Shown one piece after another: positions 3,621-61,647 of a stretch of 64,000 bases of DNA. The stretch's first letter is position 1, and each line of letters begins with the position of its first letter. A program made the translations under genes and the position numbers. The stretch comes from Chitinophagales bacterium (GTDB lineage: Bacteria; Bacteroidota; Bacteroidia; Chitinophagales; JADIYW01), in contig JAXLUA010000001.1 of NCBI GenBank assembly GCA_046329805.1, forward strand, positions 86,542 to 150,541. Direction: 5' to 3'. The notes below the pieces were generated by a model. The model saw only the letters and a list, made by a program, of their open reading frames with translations. It was not told where the DNA came from and searched no databases.

Positions 3621-4358
3621 TCAACCTAAAATCAGTCGGATTTTTTCTTTGTATGCTTCCATTTCATGTATATTGAAATGATCGGCATATTCTATAGCAA
3701 AGAAATGCGCTGGAGATTTTAGAAATGGAATCAATTTTTCTGCAATAGAAATCGGAATTAGTTTATCCTTTGTGCCGTGTAAAATATAACTTTTGCACGG
3801 CACTTTTGGTAAGTAAAGGAAATTTTCCAACTTGAAATGCAATCTATTAAAAGTAAATAATTTCACTTTATGCTGAAACAAATCGGGCATGCTGTAATAC
3901 GGAGAAATCAATATCAATGCCATAGCCGAAATTTTAGTAGCTAAGTTGCTTGCCAGCGCAGTACCCAATGATCTTCCTGCAATAATCCATGCTGTAGTGG
4001 GCGGCAATAAATCGCGTACTTTTATAAACGTAGATTCTACTACTTTATACAACAAAGGTGCTGTAAGTACTCCTTTGCTTTTACCGTATTTCGGATAATC
4101 CATCATCACTACATCATAGCCGTTTTCTATAAATAAATCTGTTTTGGGTAAATGATATTGAATATGATTTAACGTTCCGTGTAAAAAGAATACGATTCCT
4201 TTTGGCTGTACCGTTTGGACATGAACGACATTGATTTGGAAAGAATTTCCTTCTATGTTAAAATCGAAAAAATATTCTGTTAATGGGAAACGGCCTTTAA
4301 ACACATATTGCTGAGGTAATTTTTTGGGTCGGAAGATAATTTGCTGTTCCAATAACAT
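3621..4358 (-). CDS. alpha/beta-fold hydrolase
   Basis: 245-aa ORF with an HG oxyanion motif (FFLHGT), a GxSxG nucleophile elbow (AGRSLGTA), and a C-terminal D/H pair (HGTKDKL, ADHFN). Confidence 0.7.
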   Translation of the reverse strand: MLLEQQIIFRPKKLPQQYVFKGRFPLTEYFFDFNIEGNSFQINVVHVQTVQPKGIVFFLHGTLNHIQYHLPKTDLFIENGYDVVMMDYPKYGKSKGVLTAPLLYKVVESTFIKVRDLLPPTTAWIIAGRSLGTALASNLATKISAMALILISPYYSMPDLFQHKVKLFTFNRLHFKLENFLYLPKVPCKSYILHGTKDKLIPISIAEKLIPFLKSPAHFFAIEYADHFNIHEMEAYKEKIRLILG

Positions 4359-37191: not shown

Positions 37192-37755
37192 ATGAGTTCA
37201 GCATTTATTTGCAACAAATGTGGCAGCAATAATTACGAACAATTTTCACAAACGCAAGTACGCTGTATGAATTGCGGCACCGTTTCCGAATACGACTCCG
37301 GCTATCGTGTAATTCCTGAATTTGATTTAAGCAAAGACGAAACCCTCTTAAATATCGAACCTACGGTTTTATTTCCTGCAGCTCCAATCAGCAAACGAAT
37401 TGCCAACTATATAATCGATATTCTTTCCGCAAGTTTTATAATCTTTTTTATTGGCACGCTTTTAAAAATAGAAATTAGCACCCCTAAAGGGGAAATTACA
37501 GATAGCGGTTTATTGATAATGATGATTACAATTCCGGTTTACTACTTTGTTTTAGAATCTTTGTTTGGTAAAACCATCGGAAAATATTTTACAAAAACAA
37601 AAGTAATTTCAGCAGATGGTAAAAGGCCAACGATTTTACAATGTATATTTCGTTCTATATTCCGACTTTTGCCGTTTGAACAATTTAGCGGGTTATTTAT
37701 GAAAGGTGTATTTTGGCACGATTTACTGCCGAAAACATTGGTAATAGAAGATTAG
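37192..37755 (+). CDS. RDD-family membrane protein with N-terminal zinc ribbon
   Basis: CNKCGS...CMNCG zinc ribbon. C-terminal TM region with RIANYIIDIL...GKTIGKYFTKTKV, typical of an RDD domain. Confidence 0.6.
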   Translation: MSSAFICNKCGSNNYEQFSQTQVRCMNCGTVSEYDSGYRVIPEFDLSKDETLLNIEPTVLFPAAPISKRIANYIIDILSASFIIFFIGTLLKIEISTPKGEITDSGLLIMMITIPVYYFVLESLFGKTIGKYFTKTKVISADGKRPTILQCIFRSIFRLLPFEQFSGLFMKGVFWHDLLPKTLVIED

Positions 37756-41699: not shown

Positions 41700-41761
41700 G
41701 GGCGCATAGCTCAGCTGGTTCAGAGCATCCCGATTTACAATCGGGAGGGGTCACGGTTGAA
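41700..41761 (+). pseudogene. 3'-truncated tRNA-Val(TAC)-like pseudogene
   Basis: The first 30 nt plus 8 nt of upstream sequence (41692-41729) are identical to the intact tRNA (41793-41830). A different but base-paired anticodon stem (TCCCGA/TCGGGA) retains the TTTACAA loop. Similarity is lost in the T-loop and there is no 3' acceptor strand. Confidence 0.6.
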
Positions 41762-41800: not shown

Positions 41801-41878
41801 GGGCGCATAGCTCAGCTGGTTCAGAGCATCTGCCTTACAAGCAGGGGGTCCGCGGTTCGAACCCGTGTGCGCCCACCA
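41801..41878 (+). tRNA. tRNA-Val (anticodon TAC), CCA encoded
   Basis: Cloverleaf read by hand. Acceptor GGGCGCA/TGCGCCC, D-arm GCTC...GAGC, anticodon stem TCTGC/GCAGG with loop CTTACAA, T-arm CGCGG-TTCGAAC-CCGTG, discriminator A, then CCA. Confidence 0.95.
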
Positions 41879-43983: not shown

Positions 43984-45025
43984 ATGTTCTACTGCTTTGA
44001 GAAGAAAGATAATCATTATTTTGTTCTGTACTAAAAGCGCATCATAATGGCACACCTAACTTCACAACAAAGATACACAATAGAACAACTTCTAAAAGCT
44101 AAAAAATCACAACAATATATTGCCGATATTATTGGCAAAGACAAAAGCGTAGTAAGTAGAGAAATCAAACGCAATAGCATGTACAATGGTATTTATAAAT
44201 CAGATAATGCACAATCTTATTATCTTTTTAACCGGGAAAAATCTAGGCGTAAAAGCAAATGGACACTTACATTACAGGAGGAAATCATAAAAACCCTAAA
44301 AGAAGATAAAAGCCCTGAGCAGGTAGTGGGTATTCGTAAAAAAAATAAACAAGACACCGTATCTGTTGAAAGTATTTACACCTTTATTTGGCAGGATAAA
44401 AAGAATGGTGGGAGTCTTTATACCCATTTGCGCAATGGAGCTAAAAGATACAGAAAACGAGGTAATTACAAGGACAATAGAGGTATTGTCAAAGACAAAG
44501 TGATGATTGTTGAACGACCAGAAATAGTAGCTAAAAAAGAACGAGTTGGGGATGTAGAAGTTGATTTAGTAATAGGCGCAAATCATCAACACGCACTACT
44601 TACTATTGTAGATAGAAGTACAGGATTTGCTTGGATAAGAAAACTAGAAAGTAAAAATGCAACAGCGGTAAGCACTCAAATTATTGATGCGCTAAGACCG
44701 CATAAGCACTGGATAAGAACCATTACCTCAGACAATGGAAAAGAATTTGCAAATCATAAAACAATAGCTACAGCCTTAGAAATAGATTATTATTTTGCCA
44801 ATCCATACCACAGTTGGGAAAGAGGTTGTAATGAAAACTACAACCGATTGGTAAGACAATATTTTCCTAAAAAATCAGACTTTACAATTATTACTAAACA
44901 ACAAGTTCAAGAGGTAGAAAACAAACTAAACCAAAGAGAACGAAAACGATTAGATTTTGAAAATCCAATCAACTATATTTACAAAAAATTATTAACCCAA
45001 AAAGTTGCATTTGCAACTTGAATCT
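43909..45025 (+). mobile_element. IS30-family insertion sequence (1117 bp)
   Basis: Perfect 28-bp terminal inverted repeats: agattcaagttgcaaatgcaactttttg at 43909-43936 is the reverse complement of 44998-45025. They enclose a single transposase ORF. Confidence 0.9.
44047..45021 (+). CDS. IS30-family DDE transposase
   Basis: N-terminal HTH (QQRYTIEQLLKAKKSQQYIADIIGKDKSVVSREIKRN). DDE region VDLVIG...TSDNGKEF...PYHSWERGCNENYNRLVRQYFPK. Confidence 0.9.
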   Translation: MAHLTSQQRYTIEQLLKAKKSQQYIADIIGKDKSVVSREIKRNSMYNGIYKSDNAQSYYLFNREKSRRKSKWTLTLQEEIIKTLKEDKSPEQVVGIRKKNKQDTVSVESIYTFIWQDKKNGGSLYTHLRNGAKRYRKRGNYKDNRGIVKDKVMIVERPEIVAKKERVGDVEVDLVIGANHQHALLTIVDRSTGFAWIRKLESKNATAVSTQIIDALRPHKHWIRTITSDNGKEFANHKTIATALEIDYYFANPYHSWERGCNENYNRLVRQYFPKKSDFTIITKQQVQEVENKLNQRERKRLDFENPINYIYKKLLTQKVAFAT

Positions 45026-45957: not shown

Positions 45958-47328
45958 ATGTCAGGTAAGCAACATTGGATTTCGGAACAATATTTGGAGT
46001 TGTCATTAACCCTTGAAAAGGATCATGAATTTAATAACATAATTATTCTACCCAATACGGAAGCAAAACTTATTCAATTAGCATTAAAATTAATTAACTG
46101 GAAACGAAAAGATGAAGCTTTAATTGTATGTAGAAAATGCATCCAAGACTTTCCAGAATGTGGCGAAGGTTACATTGTCACAGCTCAGATATTTTGGGAA
46201 TATAGAGATGAGAAAAGGGTTGTTTTTCTGCTTAAGTGTGCACTTGTTTGTATAGTATCAAATTCAAAAGAACCATCTATTTCGACAGAAGATCTATCAG
46301 ATGTTTTATCCTTATGGCCAGTTTCGTCAGAAATTGACAATACAGATATTGAACTTTCAGATACGTTTTCTTTATTAGGCGAACGTTATAATAATTTGAA
46401 ATATTATAGTGCCTCAACTATTTTTTTACGAGCAAGTTGTTTATTAGATAAATCAAACAGTTATTCGCATTCACGATTGGCTTATGCCTTACTTGAAGAT
46501 GATAAATTGATTGAAGCCATTCCTGTTATAAATGCTGGATTACTTTTAAATCCAAAAGACGATAAGTTATTGTCTTACTTAGGAATTGTATTTAAGACTT
46601 TCCATTATGAGCATTTTTCTTTTTTAGTTTTTATAAAGGCAGCATCCATTCAATTAAAAGATGAATCTATTCTGTTAAAAAAGAGAGAGCCTTCTGAAAT
46701 AGATACAATGTATGAACTCTTAAAAGATGACGTGCTCGAAAAATATTCAAACCCTTATTTTTATTTTCCAATCTTATCTTTAGAATCTTCACGTAAGTCC
46801 TTTGAGTCAGTAGCATATCTTTTAAACGCAAATAATTTAACGTATGCAATAAATATAGTTACTACACTATCTTCTATATTTGAAACAGAACTTAAAGATG
46901 TTTTATTTCAGTATTTTAAAAATGAAATCAACGCAACTGAAGGATTTAATTATGATAACCTTACAATGGGTACTATGCTAAGATTACTTCATCCACATCC
47001 TGAAAATTACATAACTTTAAAAGTGAAAACAAATAATCACAACAATGCTATATTACTAACACCGTTAATGAATTTTTATAAATGTAATAAAAATCAGATT
47101 ACTGAAATTGCAAATATAATCCAGACAATAATAGATATCAGAAACAACATTACACATGGTCAGATGATAAATGAAATAGAATTACAACAGTTTACTTCAT
47201 TTGTCAAATTAGCATTTATTTTACTTACAAATTTACGTGTGATGAAAACTACAGGAATTTTTTCAGAAATAAAGTTTGCAGTTAATAATAACTCATATCC
47301 ATTTAAAATAAAAATAGAGATTATATAA
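45958..47328 (+). CDS. TPR + C-terminal HEPN-like domain protein (paralog 2, intact)
   Basis: 456 aa. TPR-like segments (LLLNPKDDKLLSYLGIVFKTF...). The C-terminal ~190 aa carry a conserved acidic helix (SSIFETELKD) and the Rx4H motif IRNNITHG at 47140-47157. Confidence 0.6.
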   Translation: MSGKQHWISEQYLELSLTLEKDHEFNNIIILPNTEAKLIQLALKLINWKRKDEALIVCRKCIQDFPECGEGYIVTAQIFWEYRDEKRVVFLLKCALVCIVSNSKEPSISTEDLSDVLSLWPVSSEIDNTDIELSDTFSLLGERYNNLKYYSASTIFLRASCLLDKSNSYSHSRLAYALLEDDKLIEAIPVINAGLLLNPKDDKLLSYLGIVFKTFHYEHFSFLVFIKAASIQLKDESILLKKREPSEIDTMYELLKDDVLEKYSNPYFYFPILSLESSRKSFESVAYLLNANNLTYAINIVTTLSSIFETELKDVLFQYFKNEINATEGFNYDNLTMGTMLRLLHPHPENYITLKVKTNNHNNAILLTPLMNFYKCNKNQITEIANIIQTIIDIRNNITHGQMINEIELQQFTSFVKLAFILLTNLRVMKTTGIFSEIKFAVNNNSYPFKIKIEII

Positions 47329-47347: not shown

Positions 47348-48793
47348 CTATTTTATGTTGTAATTTTTCAATTTACTCTTCAATGTATTTGCAGTAATAC
47401 CTAAAACAATTCTGGTTCTTTCTAAATTCTTATTACACATTTCATATACATACCTACAATGCCGAAGTTCAATATCTTTTAGTAATAACGAATGTTCTTT
47501 GCTTGGGTTAAGTATTCTATCAGGTAAATTTTCTAACAATACAGTATCGTGTGCTTCGGCAAAGATTCTATCTACCAAGTTTTCCATCTCTCTGATATTA
47601 CCCGGAAATAGATACTCTAATATACGTTTTTTTATATCAAGTCTTATTTTAGGCTCTTTTTTATTAAATTTTACCTTACTCTTTTGCCATAAGAAATTAA
47701 AGACTTCTTCTTTTTCTTTTAATGTATATTCTTTCAAAGAGGGAAGATATAAATCAGTAACAGCAAGACGATAATATAGATCAGGTCGGAACTCTTTTTT
47801 GTTGCACATATCATATAGGTTTCTGTTAGTTGCAGAAATAACACGTACATCAACAATCTCAGGCTTACGGCTACCAACACGTAAAATTTCCTTTTTCTGA
47901 GGTTGTAATGCTCTTAATAAGCATTGTTGCATATATGGAGTAATATCACCTATTTCATCTAAAAAGATCGTACCTCCATCTGCTTCGTGAAATAAGCCTG
48001 TAGTTCTTTCATTAGCACCTGTAAAAGCACCTTTCTCATAACCAAACAACCTACTTTCTAAGAGTTCATTGCTTAATGCAGAACAATTTATTGCAACAAA
48101 TGTACCTTTTGCACGAGGCGAATTATCATGAATATACTTAGCCAACAATTCTTTCCCTGATCCTGTTTCACCACCAATCAATACAGATACGCAATCGGCT
48201 TCTGCTATCTTCTTTGCCTTGTCGTAAGTCTTTTTGAGGGTTTGAGTAATGACTATATTCTGTTGTTTCTCATTTAAAGATTGTGGGGATTCTTGCCTGA
48301 TGATTAATGATGATGTATAGTCAGATTTTTCAAGTTCAATCCATACTTGCTCTGATTCTTTATTTTTACTATGCTCTGGTCTTCGCATTTGAAACAAGCG
48401 GGTTTTAAGACCAAGTGTTTGATGTGCGAGATACCACGCAACCTGCATCGTGGGAGTGCCAGGCGATACAAAAATATCAATGCTATGTTCTTTATTACTT
48501 AGTAATAAAGTATTCACTTTGGCACTAATTTCTTTAATATCTATGACATCATTTATTGACATTGCTCTCTCAATTATTTTATGTCCTTTATATTCCTTAC
48601 GCAAATAGGTTACCAAAAATTGATACTTAGTATCATCTGATGTGTTTTTCTTACTGCTTAACAGTAGATGATAGTCATAGTCTGTATAGAAGTGTTTATG
48701 TAATAAACTATTGGGTCCGTTAGGATTTTCAGCAGATTTATCTTTGATAAAATCATTTTCTGTCGCTACCCAAGAGATAAGAATTTTGCCCAT
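47348..48793 (-). CDS. RtcR-like sigma-54-dependent transcriptional activator (CARF-like N-domain + AAA+ + HTH)
   Basis: The central bEBP core shows Walker A GETGSGKE, the sigma-54 contact loop EKGAFTGA, Walker B IFLDEIG, and an R-finger region. A C-terminal HTH is present. The N-terminal ~150 aa ([13 protein letters not shown]..., [20 protein letters not shown]..., RLFQMRRPE) parallel the RtcR N-domain as I remember it (ITTGTHVAQICWFLLAE...RLIQSSPP). It is not a receiver, PAS or GAF domain. Confidence 0.8.
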
Positions 48794-48900
48794 AACAAGA
48801 GAGTTTATTTCATATTAAATATAATCATTTTTTGATGTGCAGAATAAAAATTTGATTATTTCCTTTACACCAATTAGCATTTCATATACTGTTCTTCATT

Positions 48901-48916
48901 TGGCATTTTGGTTGCA
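48901..48916 (+). promoter_or_regulatory. sigma-54 (-24/-12) promoter, TGGCAT-N5-TTGCA
   Basis: tggcat tttgg ttgca read directly. GG lies at 48902-48903 and GC at 48914-48915, with exact GG-N10-GC spacing. It is 108 bp from, and divergent to, the bEBP start codon, and points toward 49466. Confidence 0.7.
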
Positions 48917-48997
48917 CAAGAGGTATAAAAGTTCTTTATAGTATTGACAATAAAAAATACCGAATACATCGTATTCGGCAAAATAAGTTTAACAATT

Positions 48998-49029
48998 ATA
49001 TGCGACAAGGGCGACACCATAGTCAGGGA
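48998..49029 (+). repeat. 32-bp conserved core repeat, copy 1
   Basis: atatgcgacaagggcgacaccatagtcaggga is identical to 49130-49161. It contains the internal direct repeat GCGACA-N3-GCGACA. Confidence 0.9.
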
Positions 49030-49129
49030 AATTATTGAATCACTCATACAGTCTTCTGAACTATATGCGACCAATGCAATGAAGCAGTCTGGGTATTCAA
49101 CGATATACTCATATTATTTAACAGAAGAA

Positions 49130-49161
49130 ATATGCGACAAGGGCGACACCATAGTCAGGGA
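49130..49161 (+). repeat. 32-bp conserved core repeat, copy 2
   Basis: Identical to copy 1, 132 bp downstream. The flanks are related but diverged with indels (TTTAACA...core...ATTATT(G/A)A). A third partial ATATGCGAC lies at 49063-49071. Confidence 0.9.
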
Positions 49162-49465
49162 TATACATGGATTATTAAGTCCACAATTTTCTCATATAGT
49201 AAAAGAACCTATTTGAGTAATAGTATACACGAATTAAAATATTTGTCAAGTGTTTTTAGATGTGTTTAAAGTAGCCTAAAAAGCCTTATAAATTATGAAC
49301 GAAAATCTACAACAACAATTTACAAGAGGTAATACCGAAGAATTATCGAACAGAATTTACTTACAAGATGATTCGTGATATACTCGAATCATTAGTGTTT
49401 CTATTGGTAAATAGTCGCACAAAATCTCTTTTCATAGTTCTTTTTAAAAATTAAAAATTTTAGCA

Positions 49466-50602
49466 ATGAAAAATAATCAATTAACAACGACTACATTCCA
49501 GTCAAACGATATTGATCTGGACGAAAAAATGTCTAAACTCAAAGATGAGTTAGATACACTCCATCATCAGTTTTTAGAGAAAGTTCCTTTTGATGCTTCG
49601 AGCCTTGCATATAGTAATCTGCCAACACAGGATGCAGATAAAATAGAGCCATACATCACTAAGATAAAAGGGTTTTATTCTCGCTTACGCAACGACATAC
49701 CACAAAAAGTACAAGGTTCTTTACAACTTGTGTATGGTGCTTTTGATATGACACCTTTGGATGAACAGTTAAAGAAACTGGAACAACAGAAAATAATTAC
49801 TGAAAGGGAAAAGAATCATCTCAAAGATGAATTGAAACAACGACCCAAGCCACGAGATATTAGTCAGTACAAATGGACCAAGGTGTTGTTAGGATTTCTT
49901 GCATTCTTTGATGTAATGTCTATGATTGCATCATTCATGGGTACGTTTCAAGAAAACTACCTCTTCGCCATTGTTCTCGGAATTACTATAGGTCTTTCAC
50001 TTATCTACTTCACTAAATCATTGGTATTGCACATTAGAGATACACCTCAAACAAAAACCTCACTTGCCGTTAAATGGGCATCGGTTATTTTACTCTTACT
50101 CATTTCGATATTCATAGGAGGACTACGATATGTTCAATCCACCGATGATGGCACAGTCCATCAGGCAACACTGTATTCCAACCCTTTTGTATTCATTGTC
50201 TTTAACCTGCTCATAGTAGCGACAACAGCGTTCATCGTGTACACGAAAGTACCAAGCGAGAAAGATATACAGGAATATTTGGCGTATAAAAAATGTGAAG
50301 ATGAAATTATTCAGAAAGAGCAAGAGATAAAACAGATTGATAAGGATATGGAGGATATAAAACTAAAGAAGTCCATTACTGCCAAATATCGTTTACAACT
50401 TCGCCACTATCAGAAAATCTTTTATGAACGCATACAGGCGATGTATGAACAGGCAGTAGGCGAGTTTATTATCGCCAATTTAAAAGGGCGCACCGATGGC
50501 AAGAACCCTCTTTGCTTTACGCTCCCACTTGCTCCGCTTAGCATTTCAAATGAAGATGAAATAATTGATAACGTATTAAAACACCACAACGATGAAAACT
50601 AA
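49466..50602 (+). CDS. hypothetical membrane protein (coiled-coil / 4 TM / coiled-coil)
   Basis: 378 aa. Four hydrophobic helices (VLLGFLAFFDVMSMIASFM, LFAIVLGITIGLSLIYF, WASVILLLLISIFIGGL, FVFIVFNLLIVATTAFIVY) are flanked by charged heptad-like regions. It is the first long ORF downstream of the sigma-54 promoter. Confidence 0.6.
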   Translation: MKNNQLTTTTFQSNDIDLDEKMSKLKDELDTLHHQFLEKVPFDASSLAYSNLPTQDADKIEPYITKIKGFYSRLRNDIPQKVQGSLQLVYGAFDMTPLDEQLKKLEQQKIITEREKNHLKDELKQRPKPRDISQYKWTKVLLGFLAFFDVMSMIASFMGTFQENYLFAIVLGITIGLSLIYFTKSLVLHIRDTPQTKTSLAVKWASVILLLLISIFIGGLRYVQSTDDGTVHQATLYSNPFVFIVFNLLIVATTAFIVYTKVPSEKDIQEYLAYKKCEDEIIQKEQEIKQIDKDMEDIKLKKSITAKYRLQLRHYQKIFYERIQAMYEQAVGEFIIANLKGRTDGKNPLCFTLPLAPLSISNEDEIIDNVLKHHNDEN

Positions 50603-51323
50603 AATCATACTCGGCATAGGCTTCTTAGCCCTACTCATTAGCATGGGTATATATTTCCTGATACCAATTTTTAAAACCCAAATACATGGTAGCGAAATAA
50701 CCGTCTTCATTGACAAGACCGATGTACAGAAAGAACAATTGAAAGTGAATGATATTGTTTCGCTACTCGATATAGATAAACATATATGGCAACGAAATAA
50801 AGTGGAACTGCAAACGCTGTCTAATTTTCAATATAATAATGTTCAGGAAAAAGAATTGCCCTTTGCTTTTTTCTTGGTATCTAATCCGAAGAAACGAAAG
50901 AAAGACATACAACAATTCAAGACAGAGTTAGATTCAGCTTTACAATCCATATACGACATAGATAGCGGACGTACACGATCCTCAATATATGAGCCAATAG
51001 TAAGAACGCTTAATGCCGTATCACAATCAAAGGCGCACAAAAAGATACTAATTGTTCAATCTGATTTACAAGAAAACACGCAAATATTTAGTGTGTACAG
51101 AGAAAGTGATTATCTCCTATTACAGAGAAACCGGGAACAAATTATTGAGCGATTTACCAAAGTACTTGCACTTCAAAACATACAGGATATTGAGGTATAT
51201 CTGATTTATCAACCCAAATCAGATGCCGACAATGACAGGTTTATTCTTATGGCAAACCTGTTTAAGGAAATACTGGAACAGAAAGGGGCAATCGTTCATA
51301 TTGGTTCAAATATAGTCATTTAA
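50592..51323 (+). CDS. hypothetical membrane-anchored protein (possible vWA/Rossmann-like alpha/beta domain)
   Basis: 243 aa with an N-terminal TM (IILGIGFLALLISMGIYFLIPIF). An 11-bp overlap with the upstream ORF indicates translational coupling. The beta-alpha pattern ITVFIDKTD...KKILIVQSDLQEN...IEVYLIYQP is only suggestive. Confidence 0.55.
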   Translation: MKTKIILGIGFLALLISMGIYFLIPIFKTQIHGSEITVFIDKTDVQKEQLKVNDIVSLLDIDKHIWQRNKVELQTLSNFQYNNVQEKELPFAFFLVSNPKKRKKDIQQFKTELDSALQSIYDIDSGRTRSSIYEPIVRTLNAVSQSKAHKKILIVQSDLQENTQIFSVYRESDYLLLQRNREQIIERFTKVLALQNIQDIEVYLIYQPKSDADNDRFILMANLFKEILEQKGAIVHIGSNIVI

Positions 51324-51335
51324 AATAGGTTGCCA

Positions 51336-51485
51336 TGAAGTCAGATAGTGTATTTATAGACTTGCTTTTTGCTGTACTAAAAACAATAGGCAGAACGTTC
51401 TTATTAACGCTTTACCTCGCAGGTCGCATCATTCAATTCATCATCATACATCTAAATCTATGGATCGAAACATTACTCAAATAAT
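51336..51485 (+). CDS. possible small membrane protein (49 aa), not in the ORF track
   Basis: ATG at 51336. Translation MKSDSVFIDLLFAVLKTIGRTFLLTLYLAGRIIQFIIIHLNLWIETLLK is mostly hydrophobic. It overlaps the T4CP start by 26 nt in another frame. Confidence 0.3.
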
Positions 51486-52923
51486 GGAAGAAATAGGCGA
51501 ACAGGTATCGCATTTCATCCGCAACTATGTAATTCCAATCATACAGGAATTCTTTTACACCGTATCAAGAGGAATAGACGGTATAGTAGAAGTATTGTCG
51601 TCAAAGAATCATTCATATAAAGCCGAGTTTATAACCTATGACGAAATACTAATGAAGTCTAATAGAGGTTTCTGTTTAGATGGCAGAAACTGCCTTGCTC
51701 GTTCAGAACCAAATGTATTGGTATGCGCTCCGTCAGGTGCAGGAAAGTCAACAGTCATTAGTATTCCATCACTTTTGAAAATTGATGGTTCTGTGATTTG
51801 CAATGATCCATCTATGGAACAATACCATAAGACGGCAGGGTATTTAATTTCAAAAGGATATAATGTTGAAGTGCTTAATTTCGCACAAATAACCAACACC
51901 TTTTACAACCCCATTTCGCAAATACATAATACAGCCGATGCACAAAAGATAGCAGGGATGTTAGTGAGAAATGTGTTACAGAACCCGGGCGATCCGTTTT
52001 GGAATTTAAGTGCGACAAACTTAATCGCACTATCCATACGCATACTGTTACGACATGAGAAACAGTATAGAAACTTCGCTAATGTTCGCCATCTCATACA
52101 ACTCCTTACCTTTGAGCCAAAATCAGTAGATGCGTTAGTCGCACAAACCAATGCCCAGGATATTATTGCAGACTACAAAAGTTTCATCGCACAAGACACC
52201 AAACTTCGCACTTCTATCATAGCAACGGCCATGAGTGCTTTACAAATCTTTGCCGATCCTATTGTCGCCAAAGTAACAAGCAAAGATACCTTAGATTTAG
52301 AATCTATACGAAAGCGAAAAACAGTCATATTCATTCACTCATCAACAAGTGACATGAAATATTACTCCACACTTATAAGCATCTTCTTTGAGCAGACTAC
52401 TAAAGTGATTATGTCTAAACTGCCTGAAAAAGAAGATAACTATGTATTCTTTATTTTAGATGAGTTGAGCAGTATGTATCTGCCATCGCTTGAAATAGTC
52501 ATAGCCAATATTCGTAAGTATAAAGGTTCACTACTTTGTATTCTGCAATCGTTCCAACAGTTAATCAATATATACGGCAGAGAACAAGCAAATGCTATTA
52601 GAATGAACTGTTTTGCTAAGGTGTATATGGCAGGGTTAGATCATACCACCGCCTCTGAATTAAGCCAACAGTTGGGTAAATATGAGTGGATTGATGAAGA
52701 AACAGGCAAAAAGCACATCAGGGAATTAGCAACACCGGATGAAGTAAGAATGTTGCCTCGTGATAAAGCAATACTTATTTGTGGTAATTACAATCCTATG
52801 AAACTTACACTTACACCCTATTACAACAATCCATTTCTTAAACTGCGAACAGAAATACCGATACCATATACCAATACTGCCATAGATGAAACGCCTGTTG
52901 AACTCATAACCAATGATGAATAA
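51460..52923 (+). CDS. type IV secretion coupling protein (TraG/TraD/VirD4 family ATPase)
   Basis: Walker A VCAPSGAGKST. Walker B VFFILDELSSM. 487 aa. It is adjacent to relaxase genes. No N-terminal TM segment is present in this ORF. Confidence 0.8.
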   Translation: MDRNITQIMEEIGEQVSHFIRNYVIPIIQEFFYTVSRGIDGIVEVLSSKNHSYKAEFITYDEILMKSNRGFCLDGRNCLARSEPNVLVCAPSGAGKSTVISIPSLLKIDGSVICNDPSMEQYHKTAGYLISKGYNVEVLNFAQITNTFYNPISQIHNTADAQKIAGMLVRNVLQNPGDPFWNLSATNLIALSIRILLRHEKQYRNFANVRHLIQLLTFEPKSVDALVAQTNAQDIIADYKSFIAQDTKLRTSIIATAMSALQIFADPIVAKVTSKDTLDLESIRKRKTVIFIHSSTSDMKYYSTLISIFFEQTTKVIMSKLPEKEDNYVFFILDELSSMYLPSLEIVIANIRKYKGSLLCILQSFQQLINIYGREQANAIRMNCFAKVYMAGLDHTTASELSQQLGKYEWIDEETGKKHIRELATPDEVRMLPRDKAILICGNYNPMKLTLTPYYNNPFLKLRTEIPIPYTNTAIDETPVELITNDE

Positions 52924-52926
52924 CAT

Positions 52927-53499
52927 ATGCGGAAAATAAGACGAAATACGAAGTTGTGGCTTTATTTGTATCAATCAGGCGTTCTTGCATCTAATAATGA
53001 AACCTTGATTAAACAAAAGGTACATGAGTACTGGAAACTCTATGATAAGGAACGGAAGAAGCGTAAACGTGCGATTAAAACAGAATTTACGATATCCTTT
53101 ACCAAAGAAGAAGTAAAAGCGTTAAAATACGTTGCGTTGAATGTAGGATTAACAATACCTGACTACATCAAACAGTTGGTATATACCAATATAAAAACAC
53201 ATCCATTCACACCATACGCACAAACGATTAAGCATATTGAACAACTACTTATCCATTACAAGAACAAGATAAACGACATTGCCAAGAAAGAGGTAAAGAA
53301 CTTCTTAGGTATGAGTAAAAATTATGATCTACTTACTGCTGCTATTACAGAGATACAGACAACTATTGCTCAAACGCTTACACAAACACCAACGTTGCAA
53401 GAAACCATAAAAACAGCCTTAATGAATAACCCACTGTTTATACAAACACTCCGCCAACTTATGCAATCGTATAATGATACTCAAAAGCCTAACTCGTAA
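52927..53499 (+). CDS. relaxosome accessory protein (MobC/ribbon-helix-helix-like)
   Basis: 190 aa. The segment KRKRAIKTEFTISFTKEEVKALKYVALNVGLTIPDYIKQLV fits the RHH pattern of mobilisation accessory proteins. It overlaps the relaxase start. Confidence 0.5.
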   Translation: MRKIRRNTKLWLYLYQSGVLASNNETLIKQKVHEYWKLYDKERKKRKRAIKTEFTISFTKEEVKALKYVALNVGLTIPDYIKQLVYTNIKTHPFTPYAQTIKHIEQLLIHYKNKINDIAKKEVKNFLGMSKNYDLLTAAITEIQTTIAQTLTQTPTLQETIKTALMNNPLFIQTLRQLMQSYNDTQKPNS

Positions 53500-54373
53500 G
53501 ACAGCATCATTTAAACAGCTACTCGAATATATGGTGCATGATAAAGACCGCTACAAAGATGAACGTGGCGAATCTTTTGTAGTGCAACATAATGTAAAAG
53601 GCAAGACGATACCATCATGGGTAAAACAGTTTGAACAGAATGAAACCAACAGATTATATCAACGCTCAAATTCTGTAAAGGTATGTCACGATATTTTGAG
53701 TTGGAGTAATAAAGACACAAGTAATATGAGTTTGGAAAAGATGCAGGATATGGCAGAGAAGTATATTGAACTTCGCAATGAAAATGCCTTGTGGATTGCT
53801 GTACCACATATAGATAAAGACCACTTTCATGTTCATTTTGCTATGAGTGGAGTTGAAATTGAAACAGGGAAGTCATCACGAGTATCACGAGAACAGTTCA
53901 AAGAGATTAAGAAAGAATTACAGCAGTATCAAATTGAAAAATATCCTGAACTTACTCACTCCATTGTTGACCATGAAAAGAGCAAGAAGAAAGAACCTAT
54001 ATCAGAAAAAGAATACCAATTAACGAAACGTACTAAACAACCGAGCGAAAGGGAACGGACTAAAGAAGTACTTACTAAACTATATAGACAATCCAATTCT
54101 AAAGAAGATTTTTATAAACGCATACAAGATAATGGATTAAAGATGTACGAACGTGGTGGTAAGAACTATGGCATTGAGGGTGACAGGAAAATGCGATTTT
54201 CTACATTAGGTTTTGATGATAAAAAGATAGATACATTAGATGCTACTTTGGAATTTGAGAAATTACGGAATGATACGGAAGAAAAAGAGAAAGATAAATA
54301 CGATGATGATGGAAATGATACTGATAATAAAGATCACAGTAATGACACTGAATTAGATATGGATAAGAATTAA
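53474..54373 (+). CDS. relaxase/mobilisation nuclease (MobA/VirD2-type)
   Basis: The N-terminus MILKSLTRKTASFKQLLEYMVHDKDR is typical of the relaxase family. The histidine triad motif is VPHIDKDHFHVHFAMS. The tail is acidic and low-complexity. Confidence 0.8.
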   Translation: MILKSLTRKTASFKQLLEYMVHDKDRYKDERGESFVVQHNVKGKTIPSWVKQFEQNETNRLYQRSNSVKVCHDILSWSNKDTSNMSLEKMQDMAEKYIELRNENALWIAVPHIDKDHFHVHFAMSGVEIETGKSSRVSREQFKEIKKELQQYQIEKYPELTHSIVDHEKSKKKEPISEKEYQLTKRTKQPSERERTKEVLTKLYRQSNSKEDFYKRIQDNGLKMYERGGKNYGIEGDRKMRFSTLGFDDKKIDTLDATLEFEKLRNDTEEKEKDKYDDDGNDTDNKDHSNDTELDMDKN

Positions 54374-54659: not shown

Positions 54660-57600
54660 ATGCGGAAACAAACTTTAATAAAACTAATACTCACACTCGT
54701 GATCTTGTTGAATAAAATACATAGTTATGCACAAAGTACAAGTTATCAGATGTTATATAATGATGGCACTTTTACAAAGAGTATAAATACCGGTTTGCAG
54801 GTCGGTGTTGTTGATGGACAGCAAGGTACTACACAGACGGGAGCTGCAACATATACCATTCCAATAAAAGTAACTCCGGGAATAAATGGAATGGAACCTA
54901 AATTAGCAATTACATACAGTTCACAAAATGGAAATGGTTTATTAGGTGTAGGGTGGAACTTAAGTGGTCTAAGTTCAATAACATTAGATAATAGGAATAT
55001 ATATTATGATGGAAAGACTGCACCAATAAATATTGCACCAACTGTGTCGAGTGATGGGACAGCTTTTTCATTGGATGGCATGAGATTAATTGGGAGAAGT
55101 GGTACATATGGTTGGGCTGGATCAACTTATTCCACAGAATTAGAGAATTATTCTTTAATTACTGCTCAAGGTGTTGCTAATGCAAGTTGTGGTTGTCCTT
55201 TAAATTTTAATATTAAAACAAAAGATGGATTAAGTATGGATTATGGTGATAATGGAAGCAATCCAGATGCTCTCATACTTTCATATGGTAATTCATACCC
55301 AATAATGTGGCGTTTAAAAAGAACAACAGATAACAATGGAAATTACATAGATTATAAGTATTCTATTACGACTGACGGTGAATCTAAAATTGATGAGATT
55401 AATTATACAGGAAACTCTACAAATAATGTGGCAACTCCATTTGCCAAAGTAAAATTTATCTATTCTGAACGTTCAGATCCAAATATAATGTATGTAGTTG
55501 GTTCCAATTCAACGAATGCAACGACATTAAAGAGTAAATGGCTGTTAGATAAAATAATAATAACTTCCGATGCACAAACGGTAAAAACATACAAGTTTAA
55601 TTATGCCTTTGATGGTATTTATTCTGTATTACAAGAAGTTAAAGAAATTGGGTCTGATAATACAGAATTAAACTCTACCATTCTTAGGTACGGAAATCCA
55701 AAAGAATTGGATGCAGCAAACTCTAATGTTGTTTCAACAACAACTAATAATATTAGTACTACTAATTCGGATAATTTCACAGGTGATTTTGACGGAGATG
55801 GGTACACTGATATTTTAACTGCTTATTACACATCTCCTACATTGCGACAATATACAAGTATCAAAATATTTAGAAAGATTCCCAATACAAACAATTTTCA
55901 AGATATATATACTTATAATTTACCATCAACGATTAATATTTCTGGTACTAATTACCCGGCTTTTAGATATATAAACGTAGCTGATTATGATGGGGATGGG
56001 AAAAGTGATATTATGTTTGATAACTATTATTCTGCAAGTATTCCCAATTCATCTGCTTACGTTTTTATTTCTGGGAAGTATTCAAATACGGCTTTAATGA
56101 GCACGTGTACAAATAGTAGTTATGGTTTTAGTGTTAATGAATACAATAACTTAACAAACCTTGGTGTTTTTGGAAGCTGTTCAGCTAGTATTTATGGGGC
56201 TACTGAATCTGCATCAACGACAGTGCGAAGCCAGTTTATTAATGGAGATTTTGACGGAGATGGAGCAACCGATATTATTACAACATTATTCAATGTTGGT
56301 GTTAATGCCCCTTCTCAAGGAAACAGAACATTTATTACAAGAATTAATACTAATGAATTTTATTCTCCAATTAAATTAAATTCGACAGGTAGCTATTCCG
56401 ATCTTGGTGACCTTTGCGCTACTTATAAGCCTGTTGCAGTGGCTGATTTTGATGGGGACGGTAAAGACGAAATATTATTAGAAAATGGAATGATTCTCTT
56501 TTTTAGAAAAAATAGTAGTAATCAATGGGAATGCGGTACCATTATGTCGCCTATTAGTTCTACAGACAAGGTTTATTGTGGTGATTTTAATGGAGATGGA
56601 AAGACTGATATTTTAAGAGGTAGCAAATACGCTTGGGGTTTTAATGATTGGAAAGTATTTTATAGTAAAGGATATGGTTTTGATTCCTTATCAATGTCTA
56701 TGCAAAGTATGGCTTTTGACCAGACGTTAGATTATAAGAATATGAAGATTATTATTGGCGATTTTAATGGAGATGGAAAAGCTGATATAATACAACAGGT
56801 AATTCCAATGATACAGGTTTCACAAACCTATTCCGCACCAGCAAATTATTCCAATTTACATATTTGCTATAGTAATGGAGTTAATTTTACTTACAGAGAT
56901 ATTACTATAAATAACAGTAATACCAATCTATACATACCCAAGATATTTGGTGATTTTGATGGTGATGGAGCTACGGATATTATATGTAGATCGGATATAT
57001 CGCATACTATAAATAGTAAACCATATATGTTCGAGAGTTTTGGAAATCAACAAAAAGAGAGATATTTACGGAAAATTATTGATGGATTTAATCGAAAAAC
57101 AGAATTTACATATAGCCCACTTACAATAGGGTTGCCATTTTACAACAATGGAAATGGACCAACATCTTATTATCTTACTACAAACTCATTGAAAATACCA
57201 ATATATGCAGTTTCAAATGTCATAACTCCTGATGGTATCGGCGGGAATATTACCACTTCATATACATATACAGATGTAGTTATGGGTAAATATCGGAAAG
57301 GATTTTTTGGATTCTCTAAGATTAATTCTCTAAACTCATTGACTAACATCAATACAGAAATTCTTTATGAAAATAATGTAAATGTTACTAATAATACAAT
57401 TACTTCTCTAATCCCAGTTAGTATTAAAGCAACGCTAAATGGCAATGTCATCTCACAAAATACATATTCATATGCATATACATTTTTAGGCAATAAAAGA
57501 TTTAAGACTGAACTTTCAAATAGCACAAGTATTGATAACGTGAATGGAAAGACTTTGAATTCTAACTATGTTTACGACGGAAATGGAAATGTTATAAATC

Positions 57601-60600
57601 AAACAATTAATAACACAGGTATTGAAGTATTTACAATAAATAGACCAGTGGCTGATTTCGTAATAAGCGGGACAGGAACTGTGCCCTCATTGCCAAAAAC
57701 AATAATTGAGTCAACAACAAGAGGTAGTACAACTTTTAGTAAGACGACCAAATTAAACTATGATTCAAAAGGAAGGATAATTAGCAAAATTGATTTCGAT
57801 GGTACAACAAACAAATTAACCACTACTTTTGGATATGATAATTTTGGAAATATTATAACCACTTCATCATCGGGATTTACTACTGGTGTTGGTATTGCAA
57901 CAATTACTAAAAATACTCCATTTAGTTTTGATGGCAGATACTTGCAATCTTCTGAGATACAAAATGTAAAAGGTGTTGAAAATATAGATGCATATGATAA
58001 TAAATGGCAGACGCCCACCTCTATAACCAATGCTTCAACTTATAGGCATACTCAAATAACCTATGATGCTTTTGGAAGAACTGTTAATTTAAAGCCAACT
58101 ATGCCTGGTGGACCGACAACTTATGATATTAATACCAAATATGATTGGAGTACATTGCCGAATAGTATCTATATGGTAACCCAAACCCCTTATGGTATGT
58201 CTGAAACAAGGCAATACTATGATATGTTTAATCGTTTAGTTAGAGAAGAAAAAACAGTAAATGGTAAGACAAAGTTTACCCAAAATACTTATGACGCAAA
58301 AGGGGATATTATAAATATTAAAACTAATGATGCAGATGGGGGTACAATAGAAACAATAAATACCTATGATTTATATCATAGGCTACTCACTAGTTCACCT
58401 ACTATTGGGGCTGCATCTGCTAATACTTATACTGTTTCCTCTAATGGATATACTGTTTCTAGTTCTACTACAGGATATCCATTAAAAATTAGTAAAATAG
58501 ATGCAACAGGAAAAACAACAGAAGTTACCGAAACTGCTGGAACCAATTCGGTTACAAATATATATTCTTATCATGCTAATGGCAGATTATTAAAAGTAAC
58601 TCAGTCAGGAAAAGATTTAGTTGTTTGTGAATACGATGCTAATGGTAATCAAACTAAATTAACCGATATTGATGCCGGTTCAACTTTGTATGAGTATGAT
58701 GCTTTTAGGAATATTACAAAGCAGACCGATGGTAAAAATAATATAACTGAATCCACCTATGACCTTTCTGCAAGACCATCAACAAAGTCTGTTACGGATG
58801 GTGCTAACCCAGGAAATTATCAGACGGTCGATTTGTATAGTTATTATCCTGCAAATTCTAGTGGAGAAGGGTTAGTAAAACAAATTCAACATTTTAATTA
58901 TGCAGAATCAGGTGCTAATATTATTCAGAATTATGAGTATGATGAATATGATAGATTAAAAAAAGAGACTAAAAATTTTGAAGGAACTAATTTTGTCACT
59001 CAATATGAATACGGCGATTATGGTAGGTTAAAAAGCGTAACATATCCAAGTGCTACAGGTATTAACCCTGTTAAAATTTCATATACAACAACTGCTGATG
59101 GTTATGTAACTAATGTGAGTGCTTTAAATGCTGGAGTTTCAAAAACAATTTTAAATACTTCAACAGCTAATAACTATAATGCATTCGACCAGTTAAAATC
59201 CTATTCATTAGGCAATGGATTAAGTAGTCAAACAGATTACAATAAATTGGGTATGCCTACAAGGTATCTGACAAACTCTGTATTTCTTTTTATACCATAC
59301 AGATTACAAGATTTGCAGATGCCAATTTGGGATTTAAATAATGGTAATTTGATGAAAAGAATTGATGCATCAAACAATAACAGACCAACTACAACTGAAG
59401 TTTTTACGTATGATGGTTTTAATAGATTAACTAGTTCTACAGTCGGGACAACAACACTTGGAGTTGGATATGATGCTATTGGCAATATAACAAATAAGTT
59501 TGACGCAGGGACAGAGTATCTTTACAATTCGCCTAAGATACATGCAGTAGAAAACATAAAAAGCAAAATTTATGATTATCCGTTGCCAATTTATCCTCAA
59601 TATCCAAGCAATAACGCCCCTAATGAACGCAGTGATATAAGTGGTGATAAACAGCAAATCATTTATAACGGAATTAACCAGCCATCTTTAATAATAGAAG
59701 GTGGAGGAGTTGGAAGTAATCTTATAAAAAAATTAAAGTATATCTATGATATTGATGGAAATAGAATTAAGAGTATATACACAGAAGAGAATAGTTTAGG
59801 TGTTATTGATGCAAGTAAAACTATAAATCGTTATTATTTGGGTAACTATGAATTTGAAAAGGATGCTAATAACAACATTACTCGCCAACTTAATTATATC
59901 AGTACGCCTGTTGGCTTAACATCAATTTTAGATAAAGAATCTGGACAGGCTGATGCTTATTTCTTTACATATACAGACCACTTAGGTAGCGTTGTTACAG
60001 TTACGGATCAAAATGCCGTACCAGTAGTTTATCAGAGTTTTGATGCATGGGGAAGACCTAGAAGTACATACGACTGGAGTTACAATAATATATCTGCACC
60101 ACCAGCTGCTTTAAACGTAGGCTTCACCGGGCACGAAATGTTATCTAAGTTTGACTTGATAAATATGAACGGTAGATTATATGATCCAAAAGTCGGACGT
60201 ATGTTAGCATCTGATAATTATGTACATGATGCCTTTAATACACAGCATTTTAATCGATATAGTTATGTTTGGAATAATCCTTTAAAATATATAGATATCA
60301 ATGGAGAAGATGGAGATGGTTTTTCTTTTTATATTCCATCTAGTCCAATAAATTGGGACTTCTCAAATATTAACCTTACAATTCCAAGCCCTCAACTCCC
60401 AACAATATATAATCTTGATTATTACAACACGCCACTATTTCCTATTTCTACATTTGGAGGATATAGCTCAAATGCTTGGGGTAATACCGATAATTTTGTT
60501 TGGACTACAAATCAAGCCATAGCTACAGCCAATTCAGTAGTTGGAGATGCTAATGCTGTCAATGCAAGTTTAATGACATACATGAATGGATATACAACAA

Positions 60601-61139
60601 ATGGAGCTGCTGCAACAACTGAATTAGCGACAACAATAAGTTGGGGAGAAATAGGAACAAGTATAGGTGAAGGATTAGCAGCATTGGGTACATTTGCAAC
60701 TTCTGTAACATGGGGGGCTATAGGTATATTAACTAGTGGTGGTAGTTCTGAGCGAAGAGTAGATGATTATGCACCAGCACAGCCAATTACCATTGCGCCA
60801 CCAATTAGTACGACAGGTAATCCTCAATTATATGAACAATATGCATTAGTTGCTACAAGAACAGGTTTATATCCTACAGCATCCTGGGGTGTTCCATTTA
60901 GGGCAGATTTGGCACCTAAAAAGCTAATGTTTGCCGGGGAAGTGTGGAAATATGGAACTACAAAAAATGGAGTTGGCAGATATACAAATTCATTTTATAC
61001 TACCACGGGAATGGGTTTAGATTATGTGACACAATTTTCAGGCACCTTATTACAAGTAAGAGCAGAAGAAGCAACTAAGATTATAAATTATTATTTTTGG
61101 TATGGCGATTTGCCACCGGGAAATAAATGCTTACATTAA
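54660..61139 (+). CDS. SpvB/FG-GAP/RHS-repeat polymorphic toxin (TcB-TcC-like fusion) with variable C-terminal domain
   Basis: Signal peptide. SpvB-like N-terminus ([47 protein letters not shown]). Seven FG-GAP/VCBS motifs (GDFDGDGxTDI) lie at ~55780-56990. YD repeats ([30 protein letters not shown]...) are present. The RHS core ends at [16 protein letters not shown]...[19 protein letters not shown] (60171-60308). Confidence 0.9.
   Translation: [2159 protein letters not shown]
60309..61136 (+). other. C-terminal variable (toxin) region of the RHS protein
   Basis: ~276 aa after the RHS core boundary. It includes a Gly/Ala/Thr-rich hydrophobic stretch ([36 protein letters not shown]) and a terminal ~120-aa globular part with [20 protein letters not shown]. 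Confidence 0.6.
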
Positions 61140-61149
61140 AAGAAATATT

Positions 61150-61647
61150 ATGCTAATAAAAGGTTCATCAGAGACGGGGTATCCATTTGAAGAGTTACGT
61201 GAATATTATTTATATCATTTAGTTTATGACAAAAATGCAATTGATAAGATTACACGAGACTTTATTCCAGATGATTATGAAGAGTTTACAAAAGGTGCTA
61301 TGAGTAAGTCTATTCAAGGGAAAGATTATGGGAAAGATATTGATGAAATATCTGTATTGTTAATATGTAGGCAGGGAGCAAGTGAATTTAAGGTGCGTAA
61401 ACGCCTTTGTATAACAAATAGTAGAATCAATACTCTTGGCATAGATTGCATTTTAAATGTTGCTAAAGCAAATTTGCTCAAAGAAGATGATCTTAAAATA
61501 TATCTCTTGCAAGAGCTAAAAAAGACATTTACATCTATACAGACGTACAAGAAAAAATTAAAGAATTTTAATTTTGATGCTTTTGAAACAGATATTCAAT
61601 CGTTCTTAGATAATGAAATTGAGAGGATTGAAAAGAATAAAAAATAG
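61150..61647 (+). CDS. candidate cognate immunity protein
   Basis: 165-aa ORF that starts 11 nt after the RHS stop, on the same strand. It has no signal peptide. The call rests on position only. Confidence 0.5.
   Translation: MLIKGSSETGYPFEELREYYLYHLVYDKNAIDKITRDFIPDDYEEFTKGAMSKSIQGKDYGKDIDEISVLLICRQGASEFKVRKRLCITNSRINTLGIDCILNVAKANLLKEDDLKIYLLQELKKTFTSIQTYKKKLKNFNFDAFETDIQSFLDNEIERIEKNKK

Follow-up and report, generated by a model that had tools for sequence, protein, structure and literature searches.

A predicted sigma-54 promoter divergent from an RtcR-type CARF activator gene precedes mobilization genes in a proposed integrative element of a Chitinophagales bacterium

Gene content and proposed mobile-element setting of the locus

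We analyzed a 64-kb stretch of DNA from a Chitinophagales bacterium (64,000 nt, referred to here as the window, or WIN in comparisons between loci; related loci are numbered L001 and so on). Near position 48,900, a 672-nt intergenic region separates a regulatory gene on the minus strand from a series of DNA-transfer genes on the plus strand. The genes on the two sides are as follows.

47348–48793, minus strand: activator gene, 481 aa, with CARF, AAA+ sigma-54 interaction and Fis-type HTH domains (Pfam, NCBIfam, PADLOC, Foldseek)
49466–50602, plus strand: predicted membrane protein, 378 aa, the first long gene (ORF; only sub-threshold Pfam hits)
50592–51323, plus strand: 243-aa protein, N-terminal hydrophobic helix, tentative vWA-like fold (structure model, Foldseek)
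51460–52923, plus strand: type IV coupling protein (Pfam T4SS-DNA_transf, E = 5.7e-63)
52927–53499, plus strand: accessory protein, 190 aa (ORF)
53474–54373, plus strand: MobA/VirD2-type relaxase (Pfam Relaxase, E = 5.9e-15)

The activator matched Pfam Sigma54_activat (E = 6.7e-62) and AAA_lid_14, and its translation contains the GAFTGA loop, a Walker A motif (GETGSGKE) and a Walker B motif (DE). It thus combines the AAA+ domain and the GAFTGA loop expected of a cognate enhancer-binding protein. The C terminus is Fis-like, and HTH_8 was found in homologs. For the N-terminal residues 1 to 172, an AlphaFold model (pLDDT 89.8) gave as its best Foldseek matches in the PDB the CARF proteins Csm6, Can2, Cam1, Card1 and Cad1 and ring nucleases (best E = 1.8e-6). 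A sequence-only PDB search with the N-terminal profile returned a weak match to Csm6' alone (E = 0.064) and was too weak for assignment; the CARF domain was therefore assigned by fold comparison. NCBIfam RtcR (NF038308) aligned with residues 3 to 427 at 257.3 bits, below its cutoff of 650, whereas the PADLOC model RtcR_PspF2--CARF_AAA_HTH matched over the full length (E = 1.9e-120; RtcR model, E = 8.2e-48). No RtcB or RtcA domain was detected among the window ORFs scanned, and the divergent genes are not rtcBA. By these domain models, the activator is an RtcR-type CARF-AAA+-HTH protein of the RtcR_PspF2 subfamily and not an RtcR ortholog.

Beside the activator lies a convergent 456-aa gene (45958–47328) with weak, sub-threshold HEPN hits, whose product matched nothing in PADLOC or NCBIfam. 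In many relatives, three or four co-directional genes follow the activator, among them genes for vWA-like, PP2C-like and protein-kinase-like proteins that make up a TerY-P-like triad. Genes of this type were located at 4174–7657 in L081, 2708–5729 in L084 and 76–2860 in L103, as well as in L098 and L099; they are absent from the window.

Among the plus-strand genes, the 378-aa and 243-aa ORFs overlap (50602 versus 50592). Only four homologs of the 378-aa protein were found in 5.8 billion proteins; distant homologs are encoded ahead of the coupling protein gene in L001 and L097, and the L078 contig ends at the homolog. The model of the 243-aa protein had a pLDDT of 65, and most of its top Foldseek matches were vWA domains with a TM score of about 0.35; because of this low model confidence, the vWA assignment is tentative. 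L001, L002, L003, L004, L010, L097 and L105 each have a homolog of this protein upstream of the coupling protein. L010 (JBBTUE010000002.1), which carries a close activator homolog and a mobilization module, comes from a MAG labelled Patescibacteria; this label may reflect a binning artefact or inter-phylum transfer.

Up to 41.8 kb, the genes of the window are ordinary for a Bacteroidota chromosome (ThrRS, an RND efflux system and PorP/SprF). A tRNA-Val gene at 41801–41878 follows, with element-type genes to its right, and one end of an element appears to adjoin this tRNA gene. Since the tRNA-Val gene is followed by element-type genes, including one for an IS30-type transposase, and further right by an RHS/Tc toxin gene, we propose that the intergenic region described above lies within an integrative mobilizable element. 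No tyrosine integrase was found in the window, an IS30-type transposase (44047–45021) being the only enzyme of this kind. A search of the window for a repeat of the tRNA-Val 3′ end did not locate the other end of the element, and no similar DNA was present in PLSDB plasmids.

Several further features of the window were recorded. The tRNA-Val gene has a second copy of its first 30 nt at a distance of exactly 101 nt upstream (41700–41729 and 41801–41830), where ARAGORN called only one tRNA; the upstream copy may be a second or partial tRNA gene by the presumed element boundary. After the relaxase gene, 54660–61647 encodes a 2,159-aa RHS/Tc-toxin-like protein (SpvB, FG-GAP, TcdB_mid and RHS repeats) and then a 181-aa ORF; an RHS-type giant protein is also encoded near the activator homolog in L098. 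The last ~2.3 kb (61650–64000) is low in GC (0.29), with no ORF longer than 74 aa and no copy of the tRNA-Val 3′ end; it could consist of decayed genes or mark the element's far end. Elsewhere, eight copies of one 17-mer occur on the plus strand at 18877–22258, within the minus-strand ORF 17294–24169, at an exact spacing of 483 nt. This spacing indicates a 161-aa tandem domain repeat in a 2,291-aa protein, and GC across the same interval rises to 0.44 to 0.49.

The promoter motif and its candidate activator sites

The original prediction placed a near-consensus sigma-54 promoter in the intergenic region. The proposed 16-mer, TGGCATTTTGGTTGCA (TGGCAT, the spacer TTTGG and TTGCA), was found exactly at 48901–48916 on the plus strand. 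Its GG (48902–48903) and GC (48914–48915) have the ten-base spacing of the TGGCAC-N5-TTGCW consensus; the −12 element is TTGCA, and the window has a T after TGGCA. The distance given to the start codon of a sigma-54 activator was likewise exact: 108 nt lie between the motif and the ATG (48793) of the ORF at 47348–48793, and the genes are divergent. By the usual −12 rule, transcription is predicted to start at about 48927 on the plus strand. No rpoN gene was present among the ORFs scanned in the 64-kb window, which is part of the genome.

The motif had also been judged unlikely to arise by chance. TGGCAY-N5-TTGCW matched once in the window, both strands considered. In shuffled windows, 0.14 matches were expected and 13 of 100 shuffles contained at least one, so that the motif by itself is only mildly unusual at the scale of the window and constitutes weak evidence. 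For one strand of the 672-nt intergenic region, the chance expectation would be about 0.0007 matches. Moreover, a looser weighted scan returned a second sigma-54-like match of equal score, TTGGCAATTCGTTTGCT, at 37390–37406 on the minus strand. This second site is probably a chance match, since it sits within an ORF (37192–37755) with no activator or palindromic sites close by. The shuffles and the equal-scoring intragenic match at 37406 are what could be said for regarding 48901–48916 as a fortuitous match in an AT-rich spacer, devoid of promoter function. As the motif alone is weak, the case for a promoter must rest on context and conservation.

We therefore turned to a sample of 80 genome loci encoding activator relatives plus metagenomic contigs; a metagenome scan contributed only 10 loci. 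In 90 homologous loci, the 250 nt upstream of the activator ATG were scanned, with the strand of the activator as the control. A high-scoring −24/−12 motif was present on the divergent strand in 35 of 90 loci, compared to 1 of 90 on the control strand. In all but two of the 35, the motif starts 77 to 106 nt from the activator ATG; in the same measure, the window motif starts at 106. GGCAT and TTGC are invariant across the four lineages closest to the window (WIN, L081 to L083, L084 and L103), while the flanking spacer diverges; the activators of L081 to L083 and of L084 are 86% and 71% identical to that of the window, respectively. The family consensus, derived from 32 sites, is T-TGGCA(T/C)-N5-TTGCA, in which the T that follows TGGCA in the window is the commoner base (20 of 32 sites). 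Some close relatives have poor −12 elements, with TTGA or TAGA in L097 and L095 and TTGG in L004 and L010.

This retention of the motif at the same place in relatives is the decisive evidence for a promoter. Conservation of position and sequence (35 loci versus 1 on the control strand), invariance of the motif amid a diverging spacer, and co-occurrence with conserved palindromes and an intact activator make a chance match very improbable. Thus the judgement that the motif is unlikely to be fortuitous was borne out by the relatives and not by the 16-mer taken alone.

The palindromes lie between the activator gene and the promoter motif.

48824–48836, no strand assigned: candidate activator site 1, palindrome ATCATTTTTTGAT with a TCA-N5-TGA core (exact match, window-wide scan)
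48844–48856, no strand assigned: candidate activator site 2, ATAAAAATTTGAT, with one mismatch to the core (loose match, offset 51)

Activator sites had been anticipated at 48794–48900 or inside the activator gene, and the palindrome pair falls inside the former interval. The original prediction also held that the only conspicuous repeats lie downstream of the promoter; this has to be corrected, because the conserved palindromes at 48824–48856 stand upstream of it. The two centres, 20 bp apart, lie at about −97 (site 1) and −77 (site 2) relative to the predicted start, within the ~70 to 150 bp before the start in which such sites are usual. Site 1, which forms part of an inverted repeat (I3), is conserved in WIN, L081, L084, L103, L001, L002, L078, L086, L087, L097 to L099 and L101, and a TCA-N5-TGA pair occupies the corresponding place in all of these relatives. 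The 120 nt next to the ATG contained at least one exact TCA-N5-TGA in 82 of 91 loci, compared to 382 of 8,198 control windows (4.7%). Exact pairs at a spacing of 19 to 23 bp (~21 bp) occurred in 27 of 91 loci versus 25 of 8,198 control windows (0.3%), and loose pairs in 47 of 91 versus 129 of 8,198. The pair has the layout expected of enhancer-binding protein sites, which makes these palindromes candidate binding sites for the activator.

Together, positional conservation, the invariant core, the upstream sites and the intact activator agree with the original proposal of a sigma-54 promoter that is divergent from, and served by, the adjacent activator gene. Judged from these sequence comparisons, we are highly confident that 48901–48916 is a genuine sigma-54 promoter, for which RpoN dependence is predicted, and we consider it likely that it depends on the adjacent CARF activator.

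Genes behind the promoter and the 540-nt leader

Within the clade of the window, the promoter heads xis-int-mob or mob modules, with three arrangements on the divergent side. In the first, a small HTH/xis-like ORF, a ~470-aa tyrosine integrase and a 129- to 231-aa protein are followed by homologs of the 378- and 243-aa proteins, the coupling protein, the accessory protein and the relaxase. The series is complete in L097 and reaches the coupling protein in L001; L002 and L078 have its beginning, up to the end of the contig, and in L095 and L087 the integrase alone is seen. The second arrangement, in L003, L004 and L010, has the mob module itself. In the third, represented by L101 (65% identity), only a short leader separates the promoter from the membrane/vWA-like pair. 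In distant relatives, the same promoter position is followed by genes for patatin and a DncV-like CD-NTase (CBASS), HsdM (type I RM), a RAMP protein or Cas6b with Cas10 (type III CRISPR), or a Dna2-like helicase. The CBASS, RM and CRISPR cargo agrees with published RtcR homologs beside defence systems (PMC11090510).

These distant relatives bear on what the cargo of the window promoter is. The 378- and 243-aa proteins could form a defence or abortive-infection effector pair that is the true cargo, with the coupling protein and relaxase genes as mere neighbours. Such a reading would fit the promoter layout before CBASS, HsdM, type III CRISPR and helicase genes, the position of the pair directly after the promoter in L101, and the RtcR homologs that head defence superoperons (PMC11090510). 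Against this, L105 and L106, which lack the activator, keep the pair together with the coupling protein, and L105 with the relaxase too, so that the linkage of the pair to the mob genes is tighter than that to the activator. Only 137 nt, without a terminator, separate the pair from the coupling-protein gene. Furthermore, neither protein of the pair, nor a 246-aa protein, matched anything in PADLOC or NCBIfam, and the integrase comes first after the promoter in L001, L002, L078 and L097. An effector pair as the true cargo is in our view unlikely. Since the pair stays with the transfer genes in the absence of the activator, we treated it as part of the mob module.

In the window, 540 nt separate the promoter from the 378-aa gene. 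This length is exceptional in the family, where the distance from the motif to the first ORF is usually about 30 to 40 nt (L002, L012 and L101); in lineages of the window type, non-coding DNA stands in place of xis-int. The leader contains the following features.

48948–48980, minus strand: intrinsic terminator, a 10-bp stem (48958–48980) and then a T-run (terminator scan)
48985–49215, no strand assigned: hypervariable leader cassette with three direct repeats (repeat scan, lineage alignment)
49218–49294, no strand assigned: nearly invariant block with TTGACA-16-TATACT on the minus strand (49249–49222), facing the sigma-54 promoter (promoter scan)
49295–49378, plus strand: candidate small ORF of 27 codons, MNENLQQQFTRGNTEELSNRIYLQDDS (conservation in four lineages)

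Read on the plus strand, the minus-strand terminator would give the sigma-54 transcript a 5′ stem-loop spanning about +31 to +53. In L081 and L084 this stem persists through two compensatory pair changes (CCGAATAC/GTATTCGG versus CTGGATAC/GTATCCAG), which separate the stems of WIN and L103 from those of L081 and L084. The plus-strand A-run before the hairpin, which is the T-run of the minus strand, is invariant. At the other side of the cassette, the block at 49218–49294 is invariant in WIN, L081, L084 and L103. Its minus-strand TTGACA-16-TATACT has 11 of 12 matches to an E. coli-type consensus, which is not the usual one in Bacteroidota. The 27-codon ORF keeps its start, stop and length in the four lineages, with synonymous and non-synonymous changes; it is absent from L105 and L106, where a 124- to 125-aa gene occurs instead. 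Conservation of the final ~100 nt ahead of the 378-aa gene extends even to L105 and L106, where no activator gene is adjacent.

The repeats that had been noticed downstream of the promoter are present as 35-nt copies at 48998–49032, 49063–49097 and 49130–49164, with periods of 65 and 67 nt, and no further copy of the unit occurs in the window. Even where the flanks of two lineages share more than 90% identity, their cassettes do not align, and other lineages hold unrelated repeats at this position: two 32-nt copies at a 66-nt period and part of a third in L103, and two copies of about 40 nt in L084. Boundaries this abrupt are more suggestive of recombinational replacement or diversifying selection than of drift. 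We rejected the repeats as activator sites, as they are lineage-specific and downstream of the promoter, with the conserved palindromes upstream instead. A CRISPR mini-array was also rejected: the geometry (35-nt units) fits, but the middle copy is 63% identical and the repeats of related lineages are unrelated. The scan of the window ORFs detected no cas genes. As an alternative to a place in an antisense RNA (see below), the repeats could just as well serve as protein-binding iterons.

An Rfam scan of 48600–49600 at E values up to 10 gave a MicF-like hit (E = 8.4), which is the terminator hairpin, as its sole hit; Y-RNAs (YrlA/B), riboswitches and known sRNA families gave no hit in this interval. 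The leader holds no tRNA or tRNA-like element, and a tblastn search of it for remnants of the integrase, the excisionase and other genes of the relatives had a best E value of 0.08. The 49218–49294 block had no match in IMG/VR viral contigs.

The succession of a conserved promoter, a variable body and a conserved terminator on the minus strand fits, and by sequence suggests, a cis-antisense RNA opposing the sigma-54 transcript. With this convergent promoter-like element, and a possible proximal promoter in the invariant block, the mob genes may be mainly driven from elsewhere. In its full form, this alternative holds that the sigma-54 promoter is real and that its product is essentially a regulatory leader RNA. 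Within the leader, sigma-54 transcripts would be stopped or neutralised, through collision or pairing, by a minus-strand RNA running from ~49215 to the terminator at ~48950, and the mob operon would be transcribed mainly from a proximal promoter within 49218–49465. Several features are in keeping with it, namely the minus-strand TTGACA-16-TATACT and intrinsic terminator, the invariance of the promoter-like block in four lineages, the compensatory changes in the terminator stem, and folding z-scores of −1.9 to −2.8 (modest values) for the minus strand of the cassette. In addition, as the ~100 nt before the 378-aa gene are conserved without the activator in L105 and L106, the mob genes would have upstream signals of their own.

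The relatives speak against this alternative. In L101 the gene pair lies right behind the sigma-54 promoter with a short leader, and other relatives place xis-int-mob immediately after it; the purpose of the promoter thus appears to be the expression of those genes. The E. coli-type −35/−10 is not the main Bacteroidota promoter consensus, and no plus-strand terminator-like site was found between 48927 and 54373. A promoter serving essentially a leader RNA seems to us improbable. On balance, we favour the sigma-54 promoter as the main driver of the mob operon, with less certainty than we attach to the promoter itself, given how long the leader is and that the 100 nt ahead of the 378-aa gene are conserved in their own right.

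Proposed regulation and relation to known systems

According to our model, the CARF-AAA+-HTH activator would bind the two TCA-N5-TGA palindromes at 48824–48856. On receiving a signal through the CARF domain, it would open the sigma-54 closed complex at the expense of ATP. Transcription would then proceed rightwards from about 48927, through the 540-nt leader, into a mobilization operon comprising the 378-aa membrane protein, the 243-aa vWA-like protein, the coupling protein, the accessory protein and the relaxase. As a second layer of control, the minus-strand terminator and the facing promoter-like block, which bracket the cassette, would yield a putative cis-antisense RNA acting against read-through. 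Cyclic oligoadenylates are a plausible CARF signal, given the family members beside Cas10. We regard the complete model, from the activator and palindromes through the promoter and mob operon to the antisense layer in the leader, as probable.

The closest known system is RtcR/rtcBA of E. coli and Salmonella, in which a CARF-domain sigma-54 activator has a divergent sigma-54 promoter (PMC7790460, PMC9650030) and the proposed signal is tRNA fragments with cyclic phosphate ends (PMC7790460). The window resembles it in the CARF-AAA+-HTH architecture, in the divergence of the activator from its sigma-54 target and in the candidate upstream sites between the two. It differs in the score against the RtcR model (257 versus 650 bits), in its RtcR_PspF2 subfamily, in the lack of rtcB and rtcA among the scanned ORFs, and in having a mobilization operon. 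RtcR homologs also head defence "superoperons" at CoCoNuT type II/III-A loci (PMC11090510). Like those loci, the family described here has RtcR-like CARF activators adjoining conflict-system genes (in its distant members); unlike them, where activator and presumed targets run in one direction and no promoter has been assigned, the window has a divergent target, a predicted promoter with candidate activator sites, and DNA-transfer cargo.

Two transfer systems offer further parallels. An RteB-controlled Bacteroidota mobile element likewise has its own activator as a signal-responsive switch for excision and transfer functions. RteB is a two-component response regulator phosphorylated after tetracycline exposure, whereas the sensor in the window is a CARF domain, there is no adjacent kinase partner, and a recognisable −24/−12 element lies directly upstream of the mob operon. 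In the RteB system, the small RNA RteR adds negative control of the transfer genes. FinP/traJ provides antisense control of F-like plasmid transfer. The leader of the window is similar in that a short opposite-strand RNA (putative here) would be complementary to the 5′ leader of a transfer-activating transcript, and lineage-specific sequences would give allele specificity. Unlike FinP, its putative body of ~265 nt carries direct repeats, and no FinO-like gene was identified.

Promoters of the sigma-54 class under RtcR-type activators are already known, with RNA repair genes and, by genomic association, defence genes as their described or putative targets. What is new is an RtcR-type sensor-promoter unit heading mobilization and excision genes, plus a family-wide candidate activator-site motif; we found no published description in the literature of such a unit at mobile-element transfer genes, or of the site motif.

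A more speculative reading, which we put forward tentatively and consider doubtful, is that this clade of integrative mobilizable elements captured a defence-type CARF sensor (RtcR_PspF2), with the sigma-54 promoter switching on excision and mobilization. The element might in this way sense cyclic-oligoadenylate or damaged-RNA alarms and leave a phage-attacked or aborting cell, and the hypervariable, lineage-specific antisense cassette might be an element-specific brake or immunity determinant.

At no fewer than a dozen independent loci, the sensor-promoter unit heads transfer genes, and in relatives it heads excision genes too. Sensing of cyclic oligoadenylates or cleaved RNA by the CARF domain would, if it occurs, tie horizontal transfer to immune or stress signalling, a link that has not been described for integrative elements. 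Two TCA-N5-TGA palindromes ~21 bp apart constitute a testable binding motif for the whole RtcR_PspF2 family, and this motif would aid the annotation of regulated defence operons in Bacteroidota.
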